From Candidatus Heimdallarchaeota archaeon (lineage in GTDB: Archaea; Asgardarchaeota; Heimdallarchaeia; Heimdallarchaeales; Heimdallarchaeaceae): DNA of 37,610 bases. The DNA lies in NCBI GenBank assembly GCA_030668825.1, contig DAOVET010000021.1:1-37610 (forward strand). Direction: 5' to 3'. The position numbers and the translations under genes are program-made. A model generated the notes under the pieces. That model had not been told where the DNA came from. It was given only the letters and a program-made list of their open reading frames with translations, and ran no database searches. Position 1 is the stretch's first letter. Every line of letters starts with the position of its first letter. Positions 943 to 28,625 of this stretch are shown here, in pieces.

Positions 943-2175
943 ATGAGAGAAACAGATATTGTTGTAATAGGCGGAGGACCATCTGGATTAATAGCTGCTA
1001 GAACAGCTGCTGAAAAAGGGAAGGATGTTGTCCTATATGAATCTAAAGATCAGATTGGAGTACATGAACACTGTGCTGGCTTATTAAGTATAGATGGATT
1101 AGAACAACTACAACTAAGTCATTTACCTCCTGAAGTAGTTCAAAATGCGCAAGTTAAAGGGACAATAATTTTTTCACCTTCAGGTCAGACTCTATTTGTT
1201 TCAAAGAAAAAACCTACAGCTTTAGTTGTTAATCGGGCAAGGTTCAATCAGTTTCTGTTTCAAGAAGCACTTGACAAAGGTGTTTCTGTTGAAACCTCAT
1301 CCCGTATCATGGCTATTCATAGAGAGACCAATTCTATTGTTCTGAAAATGGGTAAAAAAGCTACATCTCAAGGTATCAAATGCAATATCACAATACTTGC
1401 AGAGGGAAGATTTCCAAGACTAAACAAGCAAGTTAACCTTCCTGTACCCTCAAGGAAATCAATTGTGTTTTCATCTATGTATGTAATGAAAAATTTGAGG
1501 GATATAGATCCAGAGTTTGTAGAGGTCTATCAAGATCAGAAATATGCGCCTGGTTTTTTTTCTTGGATTATCCCTTTGAATGACAGAATCGCTAAGGTAG
1601 GATTAGCTTCTAACACAGTTCCCTCTAGTGATTTTCTAAAATCCTTTATCAAAAATCACCCAATTGCTAAGAAGAAATTAGAAAATGCAGTAATTGACAA
1701 AAAAATGAGTGGTGCAATTCCATTAGGTTCCTACATTAGGAAAACCTATGCAGATAACGTACTTGTTGTTGGTGATGCTGCAGGTCAAATAAAACCAACA
1801 ACTGGTGGTGGGGTAATCTTTGGAGGCATCGCTGCACAAATTGCGGGGAAGGTAGCTAGTGATGCTGTTACAGCTGAGAAATATAATTCCCAATATCTTT
1901 CAAAATACCAGAAACTCTGGAAAAAAGAGTTAAAACAAAACTTGAAAGTAATGAAACTTATTCGGTCTTATATCAACTCATTATCTACTAAGGATCTTAA
2001 TCGCTTTTTCATTTTACTAAATAAACCCCGTATTAGAAATAAAATTTCAGAATCTGGTGATGTAGACAATCAAAAAACTATTGTTTTTAACCTGCTTATG
2101 AATCTAAATCTATGGCCAATTCTTTTATCAACAGGCTTAAAATTTCTCCTTAAAAACAAAGAAAAGAAAAAATGA
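943..2175 (+). CDS. Geranylgeranyl reductase family flavoprotein (digeranylgeranylglycerophospholipid reductase-like)
   Basis: N-terminal GGGPSG FAD-binding motif, HCAG, PGFFSWIIP (PxxYxWxFP-like), GDAAG and PTTGGG motifs. Confidence 0.9.
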   Translation: MRETDIVVIGGGPSGLIAARTAAEKGKDVVLYESKDQIGVHEHCAGLLSIDGLEQLQLSHLPPEVVQNAQVKGTIIFSPSGQTLFVSKKKPTALVVNRARFNQFLFQEALDKGVSVETSSRIMAIHRETNSIVLKMGKKATSQGIKCNITILAEGRFPRLNKQVNLPVPSRKSIVFSSMYVMKNLRDIDPEFVEVYQDQKYAPGFFSWIIPLNDRIAKVGLASNTVPSSDFLKSFIKNHPIAKKKLENAVIDKKMSGAIPLGSYIRKTYADNVLVVGDAAGQIKPTTGGGVIFGGIAAQIAGKVASDAVTAEKYNSQYLSKYQKLWKKELKQNLKVMKLIRSYINSLSTKDLNRFFILLNKPRIRNKISESGDVDNQKTIVFNLLMNLNLWPILLSTGLKFLLKNKEKKK

Positions 2176-2205: not shown

Positions 2206-2670
2206 TTAATATCTTGTTCTTAGACCTGATATCTTCAATTTCACTTTGACTGAGTTTTGTGTAATTACCTTATAATCAGATGATCCTAAAGAAATAGCTA
2301 AATCATGATCTATGATTTTGTCATCATTCTTTCCTGGATCTCTTTCAAAAACATGAAAGGGAACTTGTGTTACTCCTCCACGTGGAGCGTCTCTAAATTC
2401 TGAATAGAGTGTTATACCCTCTGGTGGTTGAAATATTTCATTTTTCTCCAGATTCATTGTCCCTCTGTTTGGTATTCTACTACTATAATGAGGTCTCTGC
2501 CCTACCCTAAAATAGATTTCTGACTCATTACCTAAAAGATCCTTGTCTTCTAAGACCTTTATTGAAATTAGTTCTACTCTTACTAAAAATCTATCTTTAA
2601 ATTCTTTGGTGTCCCTTTGCCCTCGAGCATAAGTGTCCCTATAAACTTTTTTTACAACTCTTCTTCCCAT
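2206..2670 (-). CDS. C2-domain-like beta-sandwich protein
   Basis: VRVELISIKVLEDKDLLGNESEIYFRV and FHVFERDPGKNDDKII resemble C2 calcium-binding loops 1 and 3; AGGTGA SD upstream; no signal peptide. The CDS is secure; the fold call is by eye. Confidence 0.6.
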   Translation of the reverse strand: MGRRVVKKVYRDTYARGQRDTKEFKDRFLVRVELISIKVLEDKDLLGNESEIYFRVGQRPHYSSRIPNRGTMNLEKNEIFQPPEGITLYSEFRDAPRGGVTQVPFHVFERDPGKNDDKIIDHDLAISLGSSDYKVITQNSVKVKLKISGLRTRY

Positions 2671-2801
2671 TTAATCACCTTAAGGTTGTTTTCCGTTCTA
2701 TTCTTATATATCTTTACTAATGTCAATAAGGTGCTAAAGAAAGAATCGAAAATAAAATTATTGCATTCTAATTGGTAAATCTTTTTTGATTATAAGTATC
2801 A

Positions 2802-3956
2802 TTAATTCCTCAGAAATTCAACAAGACAAAATTTACCTCTTCTTGTAGCAGGTATTCTCTCACCAATTCTGAAATTACTCTCTGGAAGTAAAACCGTTAA
2901 GATACCTTCCCATATGTGTATAACAAAATCACATAAATCGCGTTTTCCTTCCACACATTTTTCACCAGGGGCATAAGTACAATAAGCTCTCGCTGGATAT
3001 TCAACATAAGCCACCCTTCGGGAAATACTTGAAATAATATCTGCAGGCAAATAATTTTTGAGGTCATCTGTTGCTTTTGCTTGTAAAGCTTTGGTAACAT
3101 ATTGACCAATCATTGATGAGATTTCTTTGATATCTTGCTCTGAATCACGTATGTTAATCAGAAGGAATTCAATTAAGAACAGAACATGTATATCGTTGAA
3201 TTCTTCTTTTGCTTTCTTAACATTTGAATCCTCAATATCACTAAAGAAAGTGGTTGTAATTTCTGCCAAAACTTTGTGAAATAAAGGTAAAACCATTGTT
3301 GTTGGAAATTCTTTTAGAATCGGAGAGAAGACTGTATTTAGATCAAGATCCAAACTTGCCTTAATCTCTTCCTCTTCAACTGGTGCACTTGGTTGCATTG
3401 TTACACCAGAAACACCTTCGGTTTTAGTTTGAGCTGGGGAAGTTGCCATACTTGGTTCAGTAGAAATCTCTTGAGCACGAATAGTAGGAATTTTATTGTC
3501 AACTTTTTGTATGATTATCTGTAATTGTTGAGATTCAAATTGACTTGGCATTTGTTCTACTCTAGCATCTGAATTAAACAAGAAATACCCTAATGCTTTC
3601 ATAATCCCAGAAACAATAACTAGATAGGGGTGATAGGTCGCATCAGAGGCTATGAAACGATTTGCCCCAAGTTGTATTACTGCATTATCTTCATTTTTCT
3701 CAATTCTGATGTTCTTCCATCCCAAAGATTCCATAAGAAGATCAAATTGCTCTTCAATTCCGAGATCTCTGTGGGGAGTAAAGAAATTGAACACAGCATC
3801 AGCTATTGCTGAAGTAATAGCATGTTCAGTATCTCTATTAGTAACATCAAAAGAGGCTATTATCTTCTCCAGAGAATTCATTAGAATCTTTGTTGCTTGA
3901 AGGGCTCTTAATTTGTCGCTACCTTTGTTAGTCCACGTTGGCGAGTAACCACTCAT
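2802..3956 (-). CDS. Protein with two V4R/Bet3(TRAPP)-like domains joined by a low-complexity linker
   Basis: C-terminal LCDFVIHIWEGILTVLL...GERIPATRRGKFCLVEF fits the V4R pattern. N-terminal LGWKNIRIE...IVSGIMKALGYFLFNSDARVEQ looks like a Cys-free copy. S/T/P/Q/E-rich linker in the middle. Confidence 0.6.
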   Translation of the reverse strand: MSGYSPTWTNKGSDKLRALQATKILMNSLEKIIASFDVTNRDTEHAITSAIADAVFNFFTPHRDLGIEEQFDLLMESLGWKNIRIEKNEDNAVIQLGANRFIASDATYHPYLVIVSGIMKALGYFLFNSDARVEQMPSQFESQQLQIIIQKVDNKIPTIRAQEISTEPSMATSPAQTKTEGVSGVTMQPSAPVEEEEIKASLDLDLNTVFSPILKEFPTTMVLPLFHKVLAEITTTFFSDIEDSNVKKAKEEFNDIHVLFLIEFLLINIRDSEQDIKEISSMIGQYVTKALQAKATDDLKNYLPADIISSISRRVAYVEYPARAYCTYAPGEKCVEGKRDLCDFVIHIWEGILTVLLPESNFRIGERIPATRRGKFCLVEFLRN

Positions 3957-4203: not shown

Positions 4204-4386
4204 ATGAGTAAAATGATTGATATGCCAAGATGCACAAGCTGCAATAAAGTCATAAGTCCTAGTGATGAAGGAGACACACGTTTTTCATGTCCAAAGTGTA
4301 ATGATGTTCTTATTATTAGATGTCCAAAATGTAGACTTTTTGGAAATGAATATATATGTCCAAAATGCAACTTTAAAGGTCCATAA
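4204..4386 (+). CDS. DUF1610 (HVO_2753-like) zinc-finger protein
   Basis: Four CxxC motifs ending CPKCNFKGP; typical archaeal position directly upstream of EF-1beta. Confidence 0.92.
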   Translation: MSKMIDMPRCTSCNKVISPSDEGDTRFSCPKCNDVLIIRCPKCRLFGNEYICPKCNFKGP

Positions 4387-4399
4387 ACGGGTGAAAATG

Positions 4400-4669
4400 A
4401 TGGGTGAAGTTTTATTAGTATATGAAATTAGACCAGAAACTACCGAAGTAACTCCTAAGAAATTAGAAGAAATTGTGAGGTTAAAGCTTCCAGAGAATGT
4501 GAAGATGCAAAATAATCCTGAGGAAAAACCACTATTCTTCGGGTTAGTTTGTATAATTGGTCAATTCATTATTCCAGAGGAAGATGGTGCTCAAGATAAT
4601 TTAGAGGATGTTCTAAATTCAATTGAAGAAATATCCTCAATTCAGATGACTTTTATCACTAGATTGTAA
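4400..4669 (+). CDS. ef1b: Translation elongation factor 1-beta
   Basis: MGEVLLVYEIRPE...EEKPLFFGL...; GGGTGA SD before the ATGs at 4397/4400; follows DUF1610. The ORF-track start at 4262 is an over-extension. Confidence 0.92.
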   Translation: MGEVLLVYEIRPETTEVTPKKLEEIVRLKLPENVKMQNNPEEKPLFFGLVCIIGQFIIPEEDGAQDNLEDVLNSIEEISSIQMTFITRL

Positions 4670-4684
4670 GTTAGTCCTCTCCCT

Positions 4685-6775
4685 TTAGTTCCCTTTTTCA
4701 TTTTCAACAAATTTTTGCATTTTGATTTTTATTGCTAACCCCTTTGTCCAGTCTTCTTTATCAATATCTTCAATAAACAAGCTGTAATCATATTTCTTAG
4801 CAATTTCATTAACAATAAGAAAACCTAGATGTTTACGGAGAGTTTCATCAAATGGTGATTCTTCAATAACTCTTTGTATTTCATCATTGAGTTCAGGTTC
4901 AATACCTTCTTTATCAAGAATCATTATCTCAAAGAATTCTTGATCATCTTCTATTATTTCTCTCCCGTTGATATCTATGTTAATCTTCCTACTTTCAGTT
5001 TTTAATATTAAGCTCTTCAAGACATAGTAGAACATATCATAAAGAAAAACCCCCCCTAGAATCTTAATAACACTAGGTAAATTAACATCTATATTTAATT
5101 CTTTTTCGCTGTGTTCTTCCTCTACCTTTTCAAGTAATCTCAAAATAGTCATCTTAAGCGGAACAAAATGAACTTCTGCTCCGCTTGAAATATCTAATAC
5201 ATTAGATAATAATCGTATATCTTGAACTATTCCTGTACCTCTTCTTACAAGAGTATTCACTCTTTCCAATATCACGTTTTCTTCAGGAGGAATGCTGCCA
5301 GTTAATAATTCGTAATAACCTGAGATTCCAAAAAGAATATTGTAAATATCATGTGTTAAAACATTTAGGTACATTTTTGATCGGTTAGAGTATTCTTCTG
5401 CAATAGATTGTAATTTTGTTGCTTCAGAAATATCAACTAAAGACAAAACAACACAATATTCCCCTGTTAGATTATTGATTGTTGGAGATAATTGCACAAA
5501 AAAGGTTCTAGAATCTCTTTTTCCCAATTGAAAAATTTCTATTTCAAGTTTCATAGTATCTTTTGCGATATTCGCTATTACATCACGGGTTTTCTGAAGC
5601 ATTTCCTTAGCTTTATCTGAATCCAGACCAAGCAAGTAATCCAATTTTAATCCAATTGATTCATCGTGAATAAAACTAAATGTTTTCTCAGCCTGTTTAT
5701 TGAGATATATGATCTCAAATCTATTGTTTACAAGCATAACAGGAAAAGAAGAAAATTCAGAAGTTTGAGTTATCTGTTGAATGTCATCAAGAAGTCTTTT
5801 TCTTTGAAGAGTTAGAAATAATTGATTAGCCATAATTCGGAGAAAATGAATATTTGATTCTGATAGTTTCTCTATTGACTCGGAAATAACAACTAGAAAT
5901 CCTAGCATTAAATTAGTGGAGCCGATAGGAAGAATTACCCCATATTGCTCTTCAAATTGTGTAAAATTAATTTCTTCAATTTTGTTAGGGGTATTATAAT
6001 AAGGTAAGCTTGATATCACAAGTTGAGGCGATTTGAAGTATTCTCTTACTTGATCACTCAACCCTATATCCTGAATTAGAGAAATTTCCGCAATATCTTT
6101 GATAAACACACCTAATCCTTCAATCTCAGTTTTTGACTTAATTTTTGGTAAAATTCGATCAAGTATAAGTTGTATTTCAGTAGTTTCAAGAGTAAGGGTT
6201 GACATCTCTACAATTAAATCCGTTTGGTGCAATTTTAAACCAGAACTATATTGACCATACCAAAATGAAAGCATATCTGTTATTAACAATGATATTTCTT
6301 TTATTACAGACAAATATCTTTCTTGATTGTGTTTTACTGTATCTGGATGGAGAAAAACACTTATTGCACCAATAGTAATGTCCCCTAAATACATTGGACA
6401 TACAATAAAATCACTAATGTTCTGACTTTTTAGAAATACCTTGTAGTTGTTGCCTTCAGCGATGGCATCTGTTGGAAACCATGCTGTATCTGATTGTGCA
6501 AATACTTCAGTATAAGGATTCTCAGGATCAAAAGCATCCATCTCGATTTCTAGATTGCTCTTTGTAATTTGCTCCTCTTCGATACAAAGTGGATAAAGAA
6601 ATTGATTTTCATGATCATAATAACTAACCAAAATCAATACAGGATCTAGTGCATTTTTAATAGCTCGACTGGCTCTTTGAATCATAGAAATTTTTATTCT
6701 ACTATTAAGCAAGTCCCCATTAGCTAATAATTTAAGGAACTCTACAAGTGATTCAGTTACTAGATCTTCATCCAT
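4685..6775 (-). CDS. Soluble GAF-GAF-PAS sensor histidine kinase-like protein with a degenerate ATPase domain
   Basis: GAF-type segments (FIVCPMYLGDITIGAISV; ILPIGSTNLMLGFLVV), PAS (VMLVNNRFEIIYLNKQAEKTF), H-box LTHDIYN; N, G1 and G2 boxes are degenerate. Confidence 0.8.
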   Translation of the reverse strand: MDEDLVTESLVEFLKLLANGDLLNSRIKISMIQRASRAIKNALDPVLILVSYYDHENQFLYPLCIEEEQITKSNLEIEMDAFDPENPYTEVFAQSDTAWFPTDAIAEGNNYKVFLKSQNISDFIVCPMYLGDITIGAISVFLHPDTVKHNQERYLSVIKEISLLITDMLSFWYGQYSSGLKLHQTDLIVEMSTLTLETTEIQLILDRILPKIKSKTEIEGLGVFIKDIAEISLIQDIGLSDQVREYFKSPQLVISSLPYYNTPNKIEEINFTQFEEQYGVILPIGSTNLMLGFLVVISESIEKLSESNIHFLRIMANQLFLTLQRKRLLDDIQQITQTSEFSSFPVMLVNNRFEIIYLNKQAEKTFSFIHDESIGLKLDYLLGLDSDKAKEMLQKTRDVIANIAKDTMKLEIEIFQLGKRDSRTFFVQLSPTINNLTGEYCVVLSLVDISEATKLQSIAEEYSNRSKMYLNVLTHDIYNILFGISGYYELLTGSIPPEENVILERVNTLVRRGTGIVQDIRLLSNVLDISSGAEVHFVPLKMTILRLLEKVEEEHSEKELNIDVNLPSVIKILGGVFLYDMFYYVLKSLILKTESRKINIDINGREIIEDDQEFFEIMILDKEGIEPELNDEIQRVIEESPFDETLRKHLGFLIVNEIAKKYDYSLFIEDIDKEDWTKGLAIKIKMQKFVENEKGN

Positions 6776-14103: not shown

Positions 14104-14180
14104 TGGTGAGCTAGAGGAGATTTGAACTCCTGACCGTCAGGTTAAAAGCCTGCTGCTCTACCTAGCTGAGCTACTAGCCC
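14104..14180 (-). tRNA. tRNA-Lys(UUU), CCA encoded, no intron
   Basis: Reverse complement folds as GGGCTAG TA GCTC AGCTAGGTA GAGC A GCAGG CTTTTAA CCTGA CGGTC AGGAG TTCAAAT CTCCT CTAGCTC ACCA (77 nt). Confidence 0.97.
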
Positions 14181-17075: not shown

Positions 17076-18467
17076 ATGTTTGTCCAGAATAGATCCTCAA
17101 TAGTTAGACTATCGAGGAACTTCTCTGAGGAAAAGATCCTAACTTCCTTAGTAGATATTGTAGAATTTATTCTTGAACAAGCACAACCAAAAAATTTATT
17201 GTCTTCATTCATTTCATTCAGTGATGATAAATTAGTAATAAAAAATGACTGTTACGATTTAAATTCCTATGAGAACTTTTACTTGATTTCTTTTGGAAAA
17301 GCTTCTCAAACCATGTCTAAATGGTTTCTAGAACGTTTCCCAAGGTCTTTTTCTCGTATTATTCTCGTATCACCAGATAATCAAATATCAGATTTACCTG
17401 CGCTTGATAATTTTCATTTTCATAAAACAGGTCACCCTAAACCAGATCAAGATAGCCTTAATGCTGCTGAAAAAGTTATTTCTTTACTGGAAGAAAGTAC
17501 CTCTAAAGATTTGTGCATATTCCTTATTTCTGGTGGTGGTAGTTCTCTTCTTGAATATCCTGATTTTGGTTTATCTCTTGAAGAATACTCAAGATTAGTG
17601 GAAATTTTGTTATCTTGTGGGGCTTCAATTTCTGAGCTTAACACAATAAGAAAACATTATTCAAAAATTAAAGGTGGTAAGCTTGCTGCATTATCAGATG
17701 CCTTAATTGTAACATTAGTTATTTCTGATGTTGTAGGTAATGATCTTTCAACCATAGCTTCTGGTCCAACTGTTACCGATAATACAACCTGGAAAGATTG
17801 TGCAGATATTTTTGAAAAGTATTCTCTTAATTCTTCTCTTTCTGACTCAATCAGAAAAATATTGAAAAGAGGATTAGATAGCTCAATAGAAGAAATTTCT
17901 TCTGATTTAGTAGATTTTTCTCATGTGAAAAACTATCTTGTTGGAGATAATCTTGGTCTCCTTGAACTGTTGAACACAAAACTTAAACTTAATGCAATTT
18001 CTGAAATTATTGATCACAGAATCCAGGGTGAAGCAAAAGAAATGGGAGTAAGATTTGCTAGTATAGCTGGTACATTTTTAGCAAATTTAAAAGAAGACAA
18101 AAGAAGAACCGTTCAATATTTACTGTTTGGAGGTGAAACTACTGTAAAGCTATCTTCGTTAAGAGGTAGAGGGGGAAGAAATCAGGAATTAGCAATGTCT
18201 TTTGCCTTATCTACCAAAGATACTGAAGAGATCTATTTTCTTAGTTTAGGAACTGATGGTATTGATGGAAATTCTAGTGCAGCTGGGGCTATAGTTGGTC
18301 CATTTACAATCTCAGATAAAGAAAAAAAAAGAGAAGCGGAAAGGACATTAGCTGAAAATAATACCAACTTCTTCTTCAAAAAATATGGAGGAGAACTCAT
18401 AACTGGTTATACTGGAACTAATCTTATGGATATTGGTGTAATTTGCATAGTAATAGACAAAGATTAA
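17076..18467 (+). CDS. gck: Glycerate 2-kinase (DUF4147/MOFRL family)
   Basis: FGKAS, GHPKPD, LISGGGSSL, ISDVVGNDLSTIASGPT, GGETTV, GGRNQE, TDGIDG and TGTNLMD motifs. Confidence 0.93.
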   Translation: MFVQNRSSIVRLSRNFSEEKILTSLVDIVEFILEQAQPKNLLSSFISFSDDKLVIKNDCYDLNSYENFYLISFGKASQTMSKWFLERFPRSFSRIILVSPDNQISDLPALDNFHFHKTGHPKPDQDSLNAAEKVISLLEESTSKDLCIFLISGGGSSLLEYPDFGLSLEEYSRLVEILLSCGASISELNTIRKHYSKIKGGKLAALSDALIVTLVISDVVGNDLSTIASGPTVTDNTTWKDCADIFEKYSLNSSLSDSIRKILKRGLDSSIEEISSDLVDFSHVKNYLVGDNLGLLELLNTKLKLNAISEIIDHRIQGEAKEMGVRFASIAGTFLANLKEDKRRTVQYLLFGGETTVKLSSLRGRGGRNQELAMSFALSTKDTEEIYFLSLGTDGIDGNSSAAGAIVGPFTISDKEKKREAERTLAENNTNFFFKKYGGELITGYTGTNLMDIGVICIVIDKD

Positions 18468-19105
18468 TCTTTGCTCTTTTCATCCAATCTCTTTTCTAAG
18501 TTTCTGCTTTGCTGTGCAACGAAGAGGTCTGATAATGTTCTTTCAACTAGTACTCGTGCTGTGTCCTTTTTCCTTCGTAATTCTGGTATAAGATTCTTAC
18601 CAAATTCAATTTGTAGAAAAGTTCCATATAGTTCTTTCATTATGCCATAGAAGTATTTTGCAGTATCAATATCTCCTTCTACTAGGTTTTCTAAAATAAA
18701 CCTCCTAAGCTCACCTATGAGATCTGCTATACCTAATAAATACGATGAGTCTGTAACTTCAAGATCCTCTACAGGAGTAAATTTCTTATTTTCTATCAAA
18801 TCATAAAATAATCGGGCTTCTGTGTATTCTTGCATAGCTACACCAATGATACCAAGGTTATATGGTGCAGGATTTTCCTTCAGAATCTTGTTAACTCGGG
18901 ACAATTCATTTTTTGCTTCTTCCAACTTCTCTTTAGCTTGAAGTATTTGACCTCGGTGGAAATTTTCTATACTTTGCCCAGAATATTTAATTATTATTCT
19001 TGATAATTTAAGTAATTCTTCTCTTATGATGTCATTTTTTAGAAGCCTTTCCTCTATTTTTGTTGCACTATCTTGAAAATCTGTTGTGTCAACCATCTTA
19101 TTCAA
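18464..19105 (-). CDS. Translin/TRAX family protein
   Basis: MQEYTEA, YLLGIADLIGELRR and LRRKKD motifs; overlaps the convergent glycerate kinase stop by 4 nt. Confidence 0.92.
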   Translation of the reverse strand: MNKMVDTTDFQDSATKIEERLLKNDIIREELLKLSRIIIKYSGQSIENFHRGQILQAKEKLEEAKNELSRVNKILKENPAPYNLGIIGVAMQEYTEARLFYDLIENKKFTPVEDLEVTDSSYLLGIADLIGELRRFILENLVEGDIDTAKYFYGIMKELYGTFLQIEFGKNLIPELRRKKDTARVLVERTLSDLFVAQQSRNLEKRLDEKSKD

Positions 19106-19223: not shown

Positions 19224-20297
19224 ATGTTTCTTTCTTACTATGCTAATTTGGTGAAACAAATTGATGCTTCTTTAAAAGAATTCATGTACAAAAATGCCAA
19301 AGCAATAGATAACAACGATTTTTTACAATTTTACTATGATGAGATAGAACGGTTTCTTTTCTCTGGTGGAAAGAGAGTTAGACCAATTCTAATGGTTACA
19401 TCAGGAGCAGCAATTAATCCAGATATAAATGAAAATGGAATAATAAAAGCCTCTCTTTCTCTTGAGTTGTTACATAATGCAAGTCTTATACATGATGATA
19501 TCATGGACAATGCTGAAACTAGAAGAGGTAAAAAAGCCCTTCATAAAGTTCTAACTCTATATTCTAAGCAGAATTATAGTGATACCATCCAGAACCACGA
19601 AGATTTTGGTGTTTCAATGGGTATATTGGGTGGCGACTTTGCTTATAACATGGCTTATAAGGCCATTCATGTTAATGAATTCCCTCCAGAAACGGTTTTG
19701 AAGGCATCTTTAGAATTTAATGAAGGGTTCTTTAAAGTAGTTCGTGGAGTTATAGTTGAAACAGATCTCATGGGAAGATCCAGTGTATCAGAAAAAGATT
19801 ATCTAGAAATGGTTGAAGGTAAAACAGCTGCATTGTTTGATACAGCTACCAAGATGGGTGCAATCTTAGCAAATGCTACAGAATCTCAAATAGATAATCT
19901 GGGATTTTTTGGTAAAAATGCAGGAATAGCATTCCAAATTGTGGATGATATAATTGGATCATTTGGAAATGTTAAAAAAACTGGAAAACCCATTGATAGT
20001 GATATTAAAGAGGGGAAGAAAACTCTATTACTTATTAAAACTCTTGAATTTGCAGATGATTCAGAAAGAGAAACTCTGGGAGGAATAGTAGGAAATAGAA
20101 ATGCTAGTAATGATAATATAGAATCTGTCAGAGAGATTTTCAGAACTACAGGTGCTCTGAAATACTCAAAAAACAAAGCTGATGAATTATATAAATTAAG
20201 TCTGCAGTATCTAGAGAAAGCTGAACCAGCACTAGATCAGAAACATAAGCACTATCTCATTGAAATTGCAAAAAAAGCTGTAAATCGAGATAGTTAG
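19224..20297 (+). CDS. Polyprenyl diphosphate synthase (GGPP synthase-like)
   Basis: GGKRVRP, first Asp-rich motif LIHDDIMDNAETRRG, KTA, second motif FQIVDDII and DIKEGKKT. Confidence 0.93.
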   Translation: MFLSYYANLVKQIDASLKEFMYKNAKAIDNNDFLQFYYDEIERFLFSGGKRVRPILMVTSGAAINPDINENGIIKASLSLELLHNASLIHDDIMDNAETRRGKKALHKVLTLYSKQNYSDTIQNHEDFGVSMGILGGDFAYNMAYKAIHVNEFPPETVLKASLEFNEGFFKVVRGVIVETDLMGRSSVSEKDYLEMVEGKTAALFDTATKMGAILANATESQIDNLGFFGKNAGIAFQIVDDIIGSFGNVKKTGKPIDSDIKEGKKTLLLIKTLEFADDSERETLGGIVGNRNASNDNIESVREIFRTTGALKYSKNKADELYKLSLQYLEKAEPALDQKHKHYLIEIAKKAVNRDS

Positions 20298-21106: not shown

Positions 21107-21886
21107 ATGGCAAAAAGATATTATACAATTTTTATGTTAGGTACCGCTGGTAGCGGAAAAACAGTTTTAACAAGGACCCTTCTTGATTGGTTCAACGAAA
21201 AAAAATTAGATGTTATTACACTTAATCTTGATGCAGGAGTCAGACGATTACCCTACAACCCCGATATAGATGCAAGAGATATTGTAAATATAGATCACTT
21301 GACTGATAAACTAGATTTGGGACCAAATGGTGCTATGATTGCCAGTATGGACCTTATTGCAACAAAAGTTGATACTATTCGAGATGAGATTGATTATATT
21401 AAGCCCGAATACTTACTTATAGATACACCAGGTCAAATTGAGTTATTTGCTTACAGAAGCAGTGGAAGGTTAATTTCCTCAGTTATAGCTGAAGGTAGTC
21501 AACCAGCTTCTATCTTTTTAATTGATCCTTCTCTTGCTTTAAGACCAGAAGGATTTTCTAGTATTTTATTACTCAGTGTTTCAGTTGCATTTCAATTGGC
21601 TTTACCTCAAATAACTGCTATATCAAAGTCTGATATAATTGAAAAAGCTCAAATGGAAAATCTCGATAACTGGATTGATTCTCCAGAATCATTAGTTACC
21701 GATTTACAGAGCAGTGGTAAAGTTTCCTTATCTCAACAACTGGGTATGAGCATTATAGACATTTTGCAGCAGTTTAAATCCACAGGTGATTTGCTTCCTA
21801 TTAGTTCAAATACAGGTCACAACATTGACACACTAATCGCGTTGTTAGAGCGAGATTGGGGTCAAAGAGATGATTTCTATGAATAA
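21107..21886 (+). CDS. GPN-loop GTPase
   Basis: GTAGSGKT, NLD, LGPNGA, DTPGQIELF and SKSD motifs. Confidence 0.95.
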   Translation: MAKRYYTIFMLGTAGSGKTVLTRTLLDWFNEKKLDVITLNLDAGVRRLPYNPDIDARDIVNIDHLTDKLDLGPNGAMIASMDLIATKVDTIRDEIDYIKPEYLLIDTPGQIELFAYRSSGRLISSVIAEGSQPASIFLIDPSLALRPEGFSSILLLSVSVAFQLALPQITAISKSDIIEKAQMENLDNWIDSPESLVTDLQSSGKVSLSQQLGMSIIDILQQFKSTGDLLPISSNTGHNIDTLIALLERDWGQRDDFYE

Positions 21887-21899
21887 AACCATAGCAAAA

Positions 21900-22670
21900 T
21901 TAAGTCCCATATCTTCTCTGTCTTCTTTGATATGTTCTAATTGCTCTCCACAAATCTATTTTTCTAAAAAGTGGCCAATGAACCTCTGCAAAATAATATT
22001 CAGAAAATGCTGATTGCCATAAAAGAAATCCTGACAATCTTTCTTCTCCCGACGTTCTAATGATTAAATCAGGATCTGGGATACCGTCAGTGTATAAGTG
22101 ATTACTGATTAATTCTTCATCAACATCATCAAAGTTAATGCTCCCCTCTTTCATTTTATCTAATATCTGTCTCAATGCGTCTACAATTTCTGCACGACCT
22201 CCATAAGCCATACAAAGATTGAGAACATATTTATCGTGATTTTTGGTTGCATCTTCTGTTAATTTTATCTCTTCTTGTACATTTTTAGGTAGTAGGTTTA
22301 ATCTTCCTAGAACATTTACTTTTACTTTATTTTTAGCTATACGTTTGTCCTCTCTGATTCTTCTCAAATTTTCAACTGCAAGTTTCATAATGGTTTCTAC
22401 TTGCTTCTTAGGTCGCGAAAAATTTTCCGTTGAAAATACCCAACAGGTAATTACCTCTACCTCTAATTCCCAACACCAATTAAGAACCGCTTCAAGTTTT
22501 TCAGCACCAAGTTCATAACCCGTTTTATAATCAATACCCATCATTTTACTAGCTCTTCTATTTCCATCTAAGATAATTCCAATATGTTTTGGAATAGGTT
22601 TGTTTTTTATTTCAGCAAAAAGTCTTTTCGCATATATTTTATAGATGAATTTGGGTATTTGTAATCGCAT
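21900..22670 (-). CDS. uppS: cis-prenyltransferase (undecaprenyl diphosphate synthase family)
   Basis: PKHIGIILDGNRR, FSTENFSR, YGGRAEI, PDLIIRTSGEERLSGFLLWQ and C-terminal RRYG motifs. Confidence 0.96.
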   Translation of the reverse strand: MRLQIPKFIYKIYAKRLFAEIKNKPIPKHIGIILDGNRRASKMMGIDYKTGYELGAEKLEAVLNWCWELEVEVITCWVFSTENFSRPKKQVETIMKLAVENLRRIREDKRIAKNKVKVNVLGRLNLLPKNVQEEIKLTEDATKNHDKYVLNLCMAYGGRAEIVDALRQILDKMKEGSINFDDVDEELISNHLYTDGIPDPDLIIRTSGEERLSGFLLWQSAFSEYYFAEVHWPLFRKIDLWRAIRTYQRRQRRYGT

Positions 22671-23832: not shown

Positions 23833-24222
23833 TCAGCTAAGTTGTCGTTCAACTTCTTGAGCTGCTCTAGCCATATCCAGAAATACTAAACCTAATTTTG
23901 CTTCCTTTCTAGCTGAAACAGTTAGTACAGCATTTTGTCCAGCAGCTAAAGTAATAATGTATCCGTAAGCGCCTTCAATGAAGATTTTTTCTAATTCTCC
24001 TCTTTGCATCTCCTGAGCTACCCTTTCCCCTAGAGAAAGCATTGCGGCAGTCATTGCAGCTAAACGTGCTTCTTCAATTTCTTGTGGTAGTACTGAAGCT
24101 ATAGGTAATCCTTCTATTGATACAATTGCTGCGCTCTCAATTTCAGGAACTTTAATTTTCAGATCACTTAATGTAGTCTTTAATTCATTTGTTTTATTTT
24201 CGAATGTTATTCCAAAAGCCAT
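23833..24222 (-). CDS. Roadblock/LC7 protein, MglB type
   Basis: IESAAIVSIEGLPIASVLP, RLAAMTAAMLSLGER, IFIEGAYGYII and AKLGLVFLDM with a C-terminal helix. Confidence 0.93.
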   Translation of the reverse strand: MAFGITFENKTNELKTTLSDLKIKVPEIESAAIVSIEGLPIASVLPQEIEEARLAAMTAAMLSLGERVAQEMQRGELEKIFIEGAYGYIITLAAGQNAVLTVSARKEAKLGLVFLDMARAAQEVERQLS

Positions 24223-27444: not shown

Positions 27445-28377
27445 TTGGTTAAAGCGGTTCTTGTACTGAAAACTTCAGGTTCATGTAGATACTACAGAAT
27501 CTATGATTCCCAATGGGCGTCTGAAGAGAAGAATGTAGAGGTAATCAGTTACATTACTGCAGTAACATCAATTATAAGTGAGTTTGGTGAAAAGTCTCCT
27601 AAACTAATTGAATTTGGTAATAACGAGATTGTTTGTGAAGCAAAAGGGGACTATATTCTCACTATTGTAAAAGAGAAAGGAACTTACGAATCCTTAGTAA
27701 ATAGAGTAAAGAAGAATTTTCAGGATAATTTTCAACCTTTAGAGATAATCAAAGAAAGTAGTCCATGGATTGAAGATGAAGAATTTCTAGAGAAGGAAAG
27801 AGAAGGAATTTATTATTTCATGCGAAATCTGAATTTGATCATCAATAGACGAACAATCAACTCAAAGAAAAATAAAGCTGTTATTGTTGAAGTTGAAGAT
27901 GATTTAGAAGAACCCCTGCTTATACAAGATGTAGATATGTTAATAACCTTAGAATCAGGACAGCCTGTTTTTCTTATGTTGACTTTATCTTTACCCTATG
28001 ATGCAACACTCATAACTGCCTTTATGTCAGCTGTTCTAGATTTAGGTAAATCAATTGGATTAGGGGAACTAAAACTCCTTGAGAGCGAGAATATAATTAT
28101 TTATGTTCAAAAAATTGAGAAAGCGTTCACTGTAGTTATATCTCAGAAGAAAGAATATCGTGCAGTTTATAAAAGGTTTGCAGAATTTGTAGCTGATCTT
28201 TGTAATGATTGGCTTTACAAGCAAGGAATTGAAATAGATGAAGCTTTTCAGATTTTTGAAGAGAAAAAACATTTTGAGGAAATAATTAAGATATTAATTG
28301 ACACAGATACTTGGGAGAAGCATCTTATCAAAGAGTGGGAGAGAGATTATGCTGAACAATTAAGAATAGAAAACTGA
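27445..28377 (+). CDS. Tandem (double) longin-like domain protein
   Basis: Two repeats of the longin pattern: VKAVLVLKTSGSCRY...ISYITAVTSIISEFG...IEFGNNEIV and DMLITLESGQPVF...LITAFMSAVLDLGKSIG...LESENIIIYV. Confidence 0.7.
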   Translation: MVKAVLVLKTSGSCRYYRIYDSQWASEEKNVEVISYITAVTSIISEFGEKSPKLIEFGNNEIVCEAKGDYILTIVKEKGTYESLVNRVKKNFQDNFQPLEIIKESSPWIEDEEFLEKEREGIYYFMRNLNLIINRRTINSKKNKAVIVEVEDDLEEPLLIQDVDMLITLESGQPVFLMLTLSLPYDATLITAFMSAVLDLGKSIGLGELKLLESENIIIYVQKIEKAFTVVISQKKEYRAVYKRFAEFVADLCNDWLYKQGIEIDEAFQIFEEKKHFEEIIKILIDTDTWEKHLIKEWERDYAEQLRIEN

Positions 28378-28441: not shown

Positions 28442-28570
28442 GTGATTAAGGTCAATAAGAAGGCTGTCTTGTTTATCCTAGTATCTTTAGTCCTTCTTCT
28501 ATATCCAACTCATTTACAATCAGAAAATCAAAGTGTAGAAGAAAAGTGTGGCGAGCCTGGTCGGATTTGA
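28442..28570 (+). pseudogene. 42-codon signal-peptide-like ORF running into the 3' end of tRNA-Lys(CUU); gene remnant or microprotein
   Basis: GAGGAG SD (28430-28435), GTG start, then MIKVNKKAVLFILVSLVLLLYPTHLQSENQSVEEKCGEPGRI*. The last 22 nt are antisense to the tRNA. Confidence 0.45.
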
Positions 28571-28625
28571 ACCGACGACCACCGGATTAAGAGTCCGACG
28601 CTCTACCTAACTGAGCCACAGGCCC
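28549..28625 (-). tRNA. tRNA-Lys(CUU), CCA encoded, no intron
   Basis: Reverse complement folds as GGGCCTG TG GCTC AGTTAGGTA GAGC G TCGGA CTCTTAA TCCGG TGGTC GTCGG TTCAAAT CCGAC CAGGCTC GCCA (77 nt). Confidence 0.97.

Follow-up and report, generated by a model that had tools for sequence, protein, structure and literature searches.

A predicted C2-fold protein family of Asgard archaea with conserved acidic loops

C2 domains are widespread membrane-targeting modules of eukaryotes and occur in synaptotagmins, protein kinase C (PKC), cPLA2, ferlins, extended synaptotagmins (E-Syts) and PTEN. Calcium-switched membrane docking is usually seen as a eukaryotic invention. The C2 domain of synaptotagmin has type I topology, and type II topology is the strand order found in cPLA2 and the novel PKCs. 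The ligand set of cPLA2 consists of Asp, Asn and backbone groups. Some plant proteins hold little beyond one C2 domain, and these are recognised by the Pfam C2 model. Here we describe a protein of 154 amino acids (aa), encoded on the minus strand at 2206-2670 of a 37,610-nucleotide stretch of a Candidatus Heimdallarchaeota genome (family Heimdallarchaeaceae, contig DAOVET010000021.1). This whole stretch is referred to as the window. The original prediction for this gene, made from the letters of the sequence, was of a stand-alone cytoplasmic C2-like protein with acidic loops that could bind Ca2+ and lipids.

Predicted fold and comparison with known C2 domains

The structure of the protein was predicted with AlphaFold2, using an alignment of 32 sequences and no templates. 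The model was all-beta, with a mean predicted local distance difference test score (pLDDT) of 83.8 and a predicted template modelling score (pTM) of 0.75. Strands were assigned by DSSP to residues 27-39, 50-56, 64-66, 72-74, 86-94, 99-109, 117-128, 131-138 and 141-151, and residues 1-26 were irregular. When strands 64-66 and 72-74 are read as one bent strand (64-74), the model has the canonical eight strands of a C2 domain.

At E<=0.001 a Foldseek search of the PDB found 63 matches, the best with E 5.3e-6, and those listed were C2 domains. These came from cPLA2, plant and trypanosome E-Syt, Trichomonas C2 proteins, Itch, perforin and PKC-epsilon, and further from CAPS, dysferlin, myoferlin, Munc13, Jagged/Delta, MCTP2, CEP120 and RasGAP. 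VIA-align, which was not seeded by Foldseek, was also run for the model against a set of 48,161 representative chains, one by one. The C2 domain of cPLA2 scored Z 11.9, with a root-mean-square deviation of 2.9 A over 118 residues, seven further C2 domains scored Z 10.0-11.0, and 40 chains reached Z>=8; the tool reports Z 7-8 as the typical level for models without a true match. The first 31 rows were C2-domain proteins throughout, and the matches spanned residues 25-153 of the model. The C2 sandwich that had been proposed was therefore recovered by structure prediction and by both structural searches, and it is very probable that the protein has the C2 fold.

The first strand of the model is the L-x-V strand, with none ahead of it, and three more come after the second acidic loop; this indicates a type II topology. 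In the eight-strand reading, loops 40-49, 75-85 and 110-116 share one end of the sandwich. The two acidic loops (beta1-beta2, residues 40-49, and beta5-beta6, residues 110-116) would thus lie at the same end, as the original prediction implied; this placement is based on strand order and alignments. They are likely to be the equivalents of calcium-binding regions 1 and 3.

The best structural match was the C2 domain of cPLA2 (1cjy, 1rlw, 6iej), and both the Foldseek and the VIA-align match covered the whole domain. cPLA2 and the type II C2 domains of PKC-epsilon (1gmi) and perforin (4y1s) have the same strand order as the Asgard protein, with an L-x-V-x-V strand first, and carry acidic loops at equivalent positions; sequence identity to the Asgard protein is just 9-13%. 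The C2 domain of cPLA2 is part of a multidomain lipase, whereas the Asgard protein is a lone domain with a basic tail of 26 residues. The acidic pattern differs as well. It is of the five-carboxylate type of synaptotagmin and PKC-alpha with two Glu, unlike the set of cPLA2.

In the C2 domains of synaptotagmins, E-Syts and ferlins (PF00168), the five loop Asp residues pair in the profile-profile alignment with D44, E51, E109, D111 and D116/117 of the Asgard protein, and the Tyr of the SDPY motif pairs with Y53. Structural Z scores to the C2 domains of E-Syt, myoferlin and otoferlin were 10.0-10.4. The Asgard family differs from this type in staying under the Pfam threshold, in having Glu at two ligand positions, and in a loop 1 that is one residue longer. 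In addition, the predicted strand order is type II and not type I as in synaptotagmin, and the protein is archaeal and was never found in tandem or fused among the genomes searched. The single-domain proteins of plants (Arabidopsis 1wfj, Z 8.0; rice OsGAP1 4rj9, Z 8.4) resemble the Asgard protein in their domain content. However, they are detected by the Pfam C2 model and the Asgard family is not. The motif R65-x-P67-x-x-G70 of the Asgard family has no counterpart in C2 domains.

A phylum-wide family and its acidic loops

The open reading frame (ORF) has 154 codons with an ATG start, and its stop codon is at 2206-2208. It is a real gene under strong purifying selection, as shown by 27 full-length close homologues, a low ratio of nonsynonymous to synonymous substitution rates (dN/dS) and a conserved upstream Shine-Dalgarno site and TATA-like box. 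The median dN/dS was 0.084 (range 0.028-0.231), obtained from the window gene and 23 orthologues, where 109 of 276 pairs had a usable dS. Of the 24 orthologous upstream regions listed, most carried a GGTGA- or GTGAT-like motif where the Shine-Dalgarno site lies. The TATA-like box, aaagatatataag in the window, was kept as gatatataag, ttttaag or atttat in orthologous loci, and its conservation suggests that the gene probably has a promoter of its own. Rfam, repeat, promoter/terminator and composition scans of the region gave nothing relevant.

The strings on which the original prediction was based, MGRRVVKKVYR, EDKDLLGNESEIYF and VFERDPGKNDDKI, were all present in the translation of this ORF. 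Several of its simpler statements also agreed with the data. The N-terminal tail was basic, with 10 Lys/Arg against 4 Asp/Glu in residues 1-27. A transmembrane helix was absent (the top 19-residue window on the Kyte-Doolittle scale was 0.86), and so was a signal peptide, the N-terminus being hydrophilic as judged by inspection. The alternating strand pattern appeared as 8-9 segments of alternating hydrophobicity in the family alignment. The protein as a whole has an isoelectric point of 9.63 and contains no Cys. Within the tail, A15 was nearly invariant phylum-wide and G17 was nearly invariant in one of two alignments.

A word-indexed search found 28 relatives with 62-86% identity to the protein. 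All named relatives among them were Heimdallarchaeota, including sequences with Heimdallarchaeaceae labels, and no Pfam domain was found in these 28 except on one chimeric fragment. An exhaustive phmmer search of 1.84 billion representatives yielded 25 matches, with identity down to about 30%. The survey of Asgard genomes that had been proposed for orthologues was carried out as a profile search, and a C2-like gene was detected in 180 of 400 genomes (~45%); the 90 high-quality genomes included 43 with the gene. Usually there was a single copy. Presence differed between genome families: 26/30 genomes were positive in f1, 16/22 in f5 and 107/135 in f20, and the gene was not found by the profile search in f7 (0/12) or f12 (0/19). 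The source labels of family members were Heimdall-, Loki-, Thor- and Helarchaeota, and orthologues were present in the cultured Lokiarchaeum ossiferum (NEF87_005031) and in Harpocratesius. Apart from one automatic UniRef name, all members were named 'hypothetical protein'.

The stand-alone status of the protein also held across genomes, where the open frames measured 153-199 aa. Longer fused forms were not found at E<=0.01 among 8000 candidates, which is weak evidence. A homologue search at relaxed threshold returned family members in 114 of 114 matches and no annotated C2 protein. The family is thus a phylum-wide family of small stand-alone proteins, present in about 45% of the sampled Asgard genomes.

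Conservation was counted in 56 homologues, 28 close and 28 distant. S36, R65, P67 and G70 were invariant (56/56). The acidic residues E51 (55/56, with one Asp) and E109 (54/56, with two Asp) were nearly so, followed by D111 and D116 (54/56 each) and D44 (49/56). Two further polar residues, N77 and K114, were kept in 53/56 and 51/56 homologues. Poor conservation of the acidic residues would have spoken against a functional site, and this was not what was found: D44, E51, E109, D111 and D116 are kept phylum-wide in 49-55 of 56 homologues. Not all of the acidic residues named earlier belong to this set, since E41, E49 and D117 were conserved in the close family only. The statement that two canonical Asp positions appear as Glu was correct, as E51 and E109 align to C2 aspartates. 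The five conserved carboxylates match the five Ca2+ ligands of C2 domains of the synaptotagmin and PKC-alpha type in position. In the model they probably cluster at one tip of the domain, where they would form a candidate cation site. The motif R65-x-P67-x-x-G70 had no counterpart in the conserved columns of the 30-segment C2 alignment described below; together with K114 it could either shape or neutralise the pocket.

For a comparison of profiles, a C2 reference was built from metagenome contigs, which were scanned with a short loop-1 motif. This gave 119 loci. From these and one viral-contig locus, 54 in-frame open segments were extracted, and 30 diverse intact segments were aligned, all of which (30/30) were confirmed as C2 by Pfam (best E 9e-33). 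With hhalign, the 32-sequence family profile matched this reference with a probability of 22.4% (P 9.3e-4, score 26.2) over 86 collinear columns, pairing residues 28-128 with C2 columns 2-90. In this alignment D44 paired with the loop-1 Asp, E51-x-Y53 with D-P-Y of SDPY, E109-x-D111 with the loop-3 D-x-D, and D116/D117 with the last loop-3 Asp. A 133-sequence family profile gave 10% (P 0.0032) with the register unchanged. When the extension was relaxed, its alignment ran from residue 26 to 148 against C2 columns 1-124, and in global mode the probability was 2.7%. P values against the 30 Pfam-verified C2 domains ranged from 3e-4 to 4e-3.

Decoys and control families were scored in the same way. 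Reversed profiles scored 13.0 and 14.9. In the 200 block-permuted decoys the means were 14.0 and 14.1 and the maxima 23.8 and 25.9, and none of the 200 reached 26.2. Six control alignments (CYTH, HSP20, CARDB, PKD, DUF7507 and V4R) scored 10.2-16.1, with probabilities <=0.6%. The family was also split. Against the full C2 set and each of its halves, probabilities were 8.7%, 2.2% and 1.4% for the close subset of 28 Heimdallarchaeaceae sequences, and 25.5%, 41.3% and 2.9% for the distant subset of 105. C2 ranked as the best match over the six subset combinations, and the best control there was DUF7507 against the close subset (3.2% over 37 columns). These results point to a weak to modest similarity to genuine C2 domains that is reproducible and specific. 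The proposed check of the sequence against C2 models thus had a divided outcome: the profile-profile signal (22.4%, above 202 decoys) lends the relationship modest support, short of proof, and the cut-off of the Pfam C2 model was not reached.

Searches of sequence libraries did not assign the family to any described domain. The window protein had no Pfam match at E<=10, and no Pfam family was over threshold in 49 further members. Sub-threshold matches to Pfam C2 were seen in two members (P0039, 12.6 bits, E 0.17; P0063, 12.9 bits, E 0.13). Across the 400 Asgard genomes PF00168 exceeded its cut-off in one, in a 59-aa frame with two internal stops, and in the source genome its best match was far under the cut-off (12.8 bits, E 0.26). 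Pfam-detectable C2 domains therefore appear to be essentially absent from the 400 genomes. A phmmer search of the PDB returned only leucine-rich-repeat noise. Family profiles picked a single C2 sequence from the PDB, the plant domain 1wfj, which was found twice, in two collinear halves, at an E of about 1 that is not significant alone; Thg1 appeared in the same search at E 0.12. In the ESM Atlas the nearest clusters were unnamed, and a cluster at rank 25 (score 0.89), with C2 on 30% of its members, is a lead only. The Atlas also hinted at clusters from Gemmatimonadota.

Two other matches were followed up and rejected. Green fluorescent protein (GFP) was hit by the widest profile through 316 near-identical chains at E 0.035-0.3. 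This is a chance match to a hairpin, 48 residues long, and a protein of this size could not form a GFP barrel. P0036, a 2192-aa DUF7507/DUF11 repeat protein, reached E 1.4e-17 by summing 11 weak repeat matches to residues 51-89; hhalign against its repeats gave 0.3%, and 3.2% with the close subset.

The candidate cation site and its alternatives

By analogy with known C2 domains, a mechanism can be proposed. D44 and E51 of loop 1 and E109, D111 and D116 of loop 3 would form a site for a divalent cation (Ca2+) at one tip of the domain, as in the C2 domains of synaptotagmin, PKC-alpha and cPLA2. Binding of the cation would neutralise the acidic tip. With help from the basic tail and a ladder of lysines in the last strand (K142, K144, K146), the protein would then attach reversibly to anionic lipids on the cytoplasmic face of the archaeal membrane. 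For this overall reading, a soluble cytoplasmic single-domain C2 protein with cation-dependent docking on anionic membranes, we consider the chances to be evenly balanced. Cation-dependent membrane binding as such we put slightly below an even chance. Homology of the family to eukaryotic C2 domains, as a separate matter, is probable.

A number of observations weigh against this reading. None of 50 family members reached the gathering score of Pfam C2 (22 bits), 48 of the 50 had no C2 match at all at E<=10, and NCBIfam gave no match for the family. Profile-profile probabilities were modest (1.4-41% by subset), below the level usually taken as proof, and in the middle of the alignment the register of beta3-beta4 shifted between runs. 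GFP hairpins, at E 0.035, outscored every C2 sequence in the PDB, which shows that weak hits are nonspecific for this beta-rich protein. As to the model, AlphaFold2 was trained on PDB structures that include C2 domains, and the shallow alignment leaves some risk for the fold. At the site itself, two of the five ligand positions are strictly Glu, and the invariant R65, P67 and G70 and the near-invariant K114 are absent from typical C2 domains. Salt bridges may thus occupy the pocket, or its ligand may not be Ca2+. The gene neighbours vary by lineage and show no consistent link to a membrane process. Finally, many C2 domains, including type II domains, are described as Ca2+-independent and as binding proteins or lipids in other ways (10.1101/2020.10.30.361964).

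The main alternative, which we regard as rather unlikely, is a C2 fold that works without calcium, as a constitutive lipid- or protein-binding adaptor like the C2 domains of novel PKC, PTEN, Smurf and KIBRA. D44, E51, R65, E109, D111, K114 and D116 would then be an internal salt-bridge network or a pocket for a protein or phospho-ligand. The replacement of Asp by Glu at two positions fits this explanation, as does the presence of R65 and K114, invariant or nearly so, beside the acidic residues. Ca2+-independent type II C2 domains, those of PKC-epsilon, Itch, Smurf2, Nedd4 and CEP120, were among the top structural matches, and the matched Trichomonas C2 domains had been crystallised with pyrophosphate, sulfate or malonate. 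The five carboxylates are harder to explain in this way. Ca2+-independent C2 domains usually lack most of the five acidic positions, whereas the Asgard family retains a carboxylate at each of the five in different classes of the phylum, and these residues align to the Ca2+ ligands of synaptotagmin-type domains. The strongly basic character of the protein suits a calcium-independent adaptor too, given that basic faces of Ca2+-independent C2 domains are reported to bind anionic membranes (10.1101/2020.10.30.361964).

A resemblance that is convergent or very ancient is improbable. Here the protein would be a beta-sandwich of archaea that does not share its descent with the C2 domains of eukaryotes, and it would have a task other than membrane docking, such as the binding of RNA, DNA or ribonucleoprotein by the basic tail and the lysine ladder. 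Like many nucleic-acid-binding proteins it is small, very basic, conserved and usually single-copy, and no significant sequence-to-profile match to models of the C2 clan was obtained, with profile-profile probabilities of just 1.4-41%. Its neighbours in the window include genes for translation and tRNA modification, namely aEF-1beta, an HVO_2753-type zinc finger and archaeosine tRNA-guanine transglycosylase. However, these neighbours are not conserved beyond Heimdallarchaeaceae. The similarity to C2 domains is collinear and anchored on the functional loops, and it stands above the 202 decoys and six control families. Structural Z scores of 10-12 over the whole domain likewise exceed the 7-8 that is typical without a true match.

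The one automatic UniRef name, 'CYTH domain-containing protein' for the L. ossiferum orthologue (UniRef100_A0ABY6HYZ7), would make the family CYTH/triphosphate-tunnel metalloenzymes, which are small and all-beta as well and have acidic and basic residues conserved on their strands, but this identity is effectively refuted and its likelihood is close to nil: Pfam CYTH matched 0/50 members at E<=10, hhalign against genuine CYTH gave 0.6% and 0.4%, the invariant ExExK start (E2, E4 and K6 in the CYTH alignment) has no counterpart in the family, and genuine CYTH genes lie at other loci in 8/21 related genomes (E 1e-15 to 1e-33). No CYTH entry was among the matches listed by Foldseek and VIA-align, an absence that alone is not an exclusion. 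The name is probably a mis-annotation.

Neighbouring genes and biological meaning

The features of the locus are listed in Table 1.

Table 1. Features at and around the C2-like gene of the window
Feature	Position	Strand	Details
Gene of the 154-aa stand-alone protein (predicted C2 fold)	2206..2670	-	ATG-started ORF; homologues, dN/dS, AlphaFold2 model, C2 fold matches
Predicted C2 beta-sandwich core, residues 27-151	2218..2592	-	DSSP; structural alignments model 25-153; hhalign 26-148
Loop 3, residues 109-117 (putative calcium-binding region 3 equivalent)	2320..2346	-	E109-R-D111-P-G-K114-N-D116-D117; aligned to C2 D-x-D...D
R65-x-P67-x-x-G70 motif, residues 65-70	2461..2478	-	56/56; family-specific
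Loop 1, residues 40-51 (putative calcium-binding region 1 equivalent)	2518..2553	-	D44, E51; aligned to C2 loop-1 and SDPY Asp
Polybasic N-terminal tail, residues 1-26	2593..2670	-	Conserved; predicted without regular structure, pLDDT about 56
GGTGAT Shine-Dalgarno	2674..2679	-	4-9 nt upstream of ATG
TATA-like box, A/T-rich	2703..2715	-	aaagatatataag; 33-45 nt upstream of ATG
Gene of a 384-aa two-domain protein, upstream same-strand neighbour	2802..3956	-	Probable Bet3/V4R/H-NOX fold class; four invariant Cys
Geranylgeranyl reductase (GGR)-family flavoprotein, convergent downstream neighbour	943..2175	+	Pfam FAD_binding_3, GGR_cat, others

The C2-like gene was flanked by the 384-aa gene and the GGR-family gene in all 26 Heimdallarchaeaceae loci (26/26). 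The flanking pair persists in Heimdallarchaeum, where the remaining synteny is lost; at that distance the C2-like protein has 60-62% identity, against 49-51% for both neighbours. In the 23 loci outside Heimdallarchaeaceae the 384-aa gene was absent (0/23), and a GGR homologue was found in one, about 3 kb off. The 384-aa gene occurred in 55 of the 400 genomes, confined to part of the class. In genome families f2-f4 it was on contigs other than that of the C2-like gene, and in f7 it was present without the C2-like gene. A functional partnership of the two proteins was rejected, as their genes are unlinked or one is absent beyond Heimdallarchaeaceae. The pairing is lineage-specific and does not point to an obligatory complex. 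In genome family f5 the gene directly 3' of the C2-like gene on the same strand encoded a protein of ~190 aa with hydrophobic membrane-like segments and no Pfam match (5/5 loci).

The AlphaFold2 model of the 384-aa protein (pLDDT 74.2, pTM 0.50) consisted of two alpha/beta domains, residues 12-152 and 207-383. A disordered linker rich in acidic and Ser/Thr residues (160-195) lies between them. Foldseek gave no match at E<=0.001; at E 0.004-0.03 it listed H-NOX/soluble guanylate cyclase, BcsD, TRAPP subunits (3cue_B, 2bjn_B, 2j3t_B) and MopR. According to Tran et al. 2024 (PMC10933270), H-NOX, BcsD, TRAPP and MopR are the set similar to Thor-TRAPPC3, whose two-layer alpha/beta fold has a sheet of four strands and about four helices, and a Zn site of four Cys is described there for Thor-TRAPPC3 and PoxR. 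Both domains in the model of the 384-aa protein show this kind of arrangement. The 384-aa protein shares the four-Cys pattern as a putative Zn site: C326, C334, C342 and C377, in its C-terminal domain, were invariant in 14 orthologues. No Pfam match was found at E<=10, V4R (PF02830) included, and a genome-wide V4R search found three other places in the source genome and not the 384-aa gene. With hhalign, the 384-aa family scored 0.25% against 10 genuine V4R segments, using a shallow profile (effective number of sequences, Neff, 1.9). Judged by its model, the neighbour is probably a Bet3/V4R-class protein.

In complete Loki-type genomes a GGR-like FAD oxidoreductase gene adjoins the C2-like gene in 2/3 and lies within 5 kb (<=5 kb) in the third. 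Of the two adjoining genes (4723-6033 of the L. ossiferum locus and 4271-5677 of a second locus), one is convergent and the other divergent, which resembles the GGR adjacency of Heimdallarchaeaceae. Its product was not the reciprocal best match of the window GGR and gave a weak FAD/Rossmann signal in Pfam. It is probably a different paralogue, and the linkage was given little weight.

The window holds further genes for isoprenoid lipids besides the GGR-family gene at 943-2175: a polyprenyl synthase (19224-20297) and a cis-prenyltransferase (21900-22670). A 310-aa protein encoded at 27445-28377 (plus strand) matched the FUZ/MON1/HPS1 first longin domain at E 2.4e-5, with 25.0 bits against a cut-off of 26.1, and may be a relative of tri-longin-type guanine nucleotide exchange factors. 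Near it are genes for a Roadblock/LC7 protein (23833-24222) and a GPN-loop GTPase (21107-21886). At 4204-4386 (plus strand) a 60-aa HVO_2753-type four-Cys zinc finger is encoded, followed by aEF-1beta (ORF at 4262-4669). The aEF-1beta ORF of 135 aa, which starts with GTG, overlaps the preceding zinc-finger gene. Its true start probably lies further downstream, as the EF1_GNE match begins at residue 52. A translin-family protein (E 1.6e-13) is encoded at 18464-19105 (minus strand). Two tRNA-Lys genes, with anticodons TTT and CTT, are on the minus strand at 14104-14180 and 28549-28625. The GC content was flat across the window (0.30-0.34), which gives no sign of a foreign island.

We found no publication in the searchable literature that describes a C2 or C2-like protein from Asgard archaea. 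Two structure-based surveys of these archaea (PMC12962969; bioRxiv 10.64898/2026.10.28.762692) do not mention one in their main texts, and their supplements may list one. The C2 fold itself is known; what is new is an archaeal family of stand-alone proteins, divergent enough to escape Pfam and with changes in the ligand set.

A cryptic conserved protein with a C2 fold would be an added candidate for the eukaryotic signature proteins of Asgard archaea, beside small GTPases, longin/roadblock, TRAPP-like, ESCRT and lipid-transfer proteins. Among the latter, the StarAsg proteins have been localised as GFP fusions in yeast together with a PS sensor (bioRxiv 10.1101/2025.05.16.653879). A doubtful further step, which we put forward tentatively, is true kinship of this archaeal family with the eukaryotic C2 superfamily, its presence in the Asgard ancestor, and an origin of Ca2+-switched membrane docking before eukaryogenesis. 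If this were true, the protein would sense Ca2+ and either signal the state of the membrane or remodel it, for instance where it protrudes or is damaged, and in Heimdallarchaeaceae it would do so in partnership with a Bet3/V4R-type protein that binds lipid ligands. The orthologue in the cultured L. ossiferum makes a localisation study feasible, and the protein, being small, soluble and free of Cys, should be easy to express. The family thereby makes a question testable: was there Ca2+-regulated peripheral membrane binding before eukaryotes?

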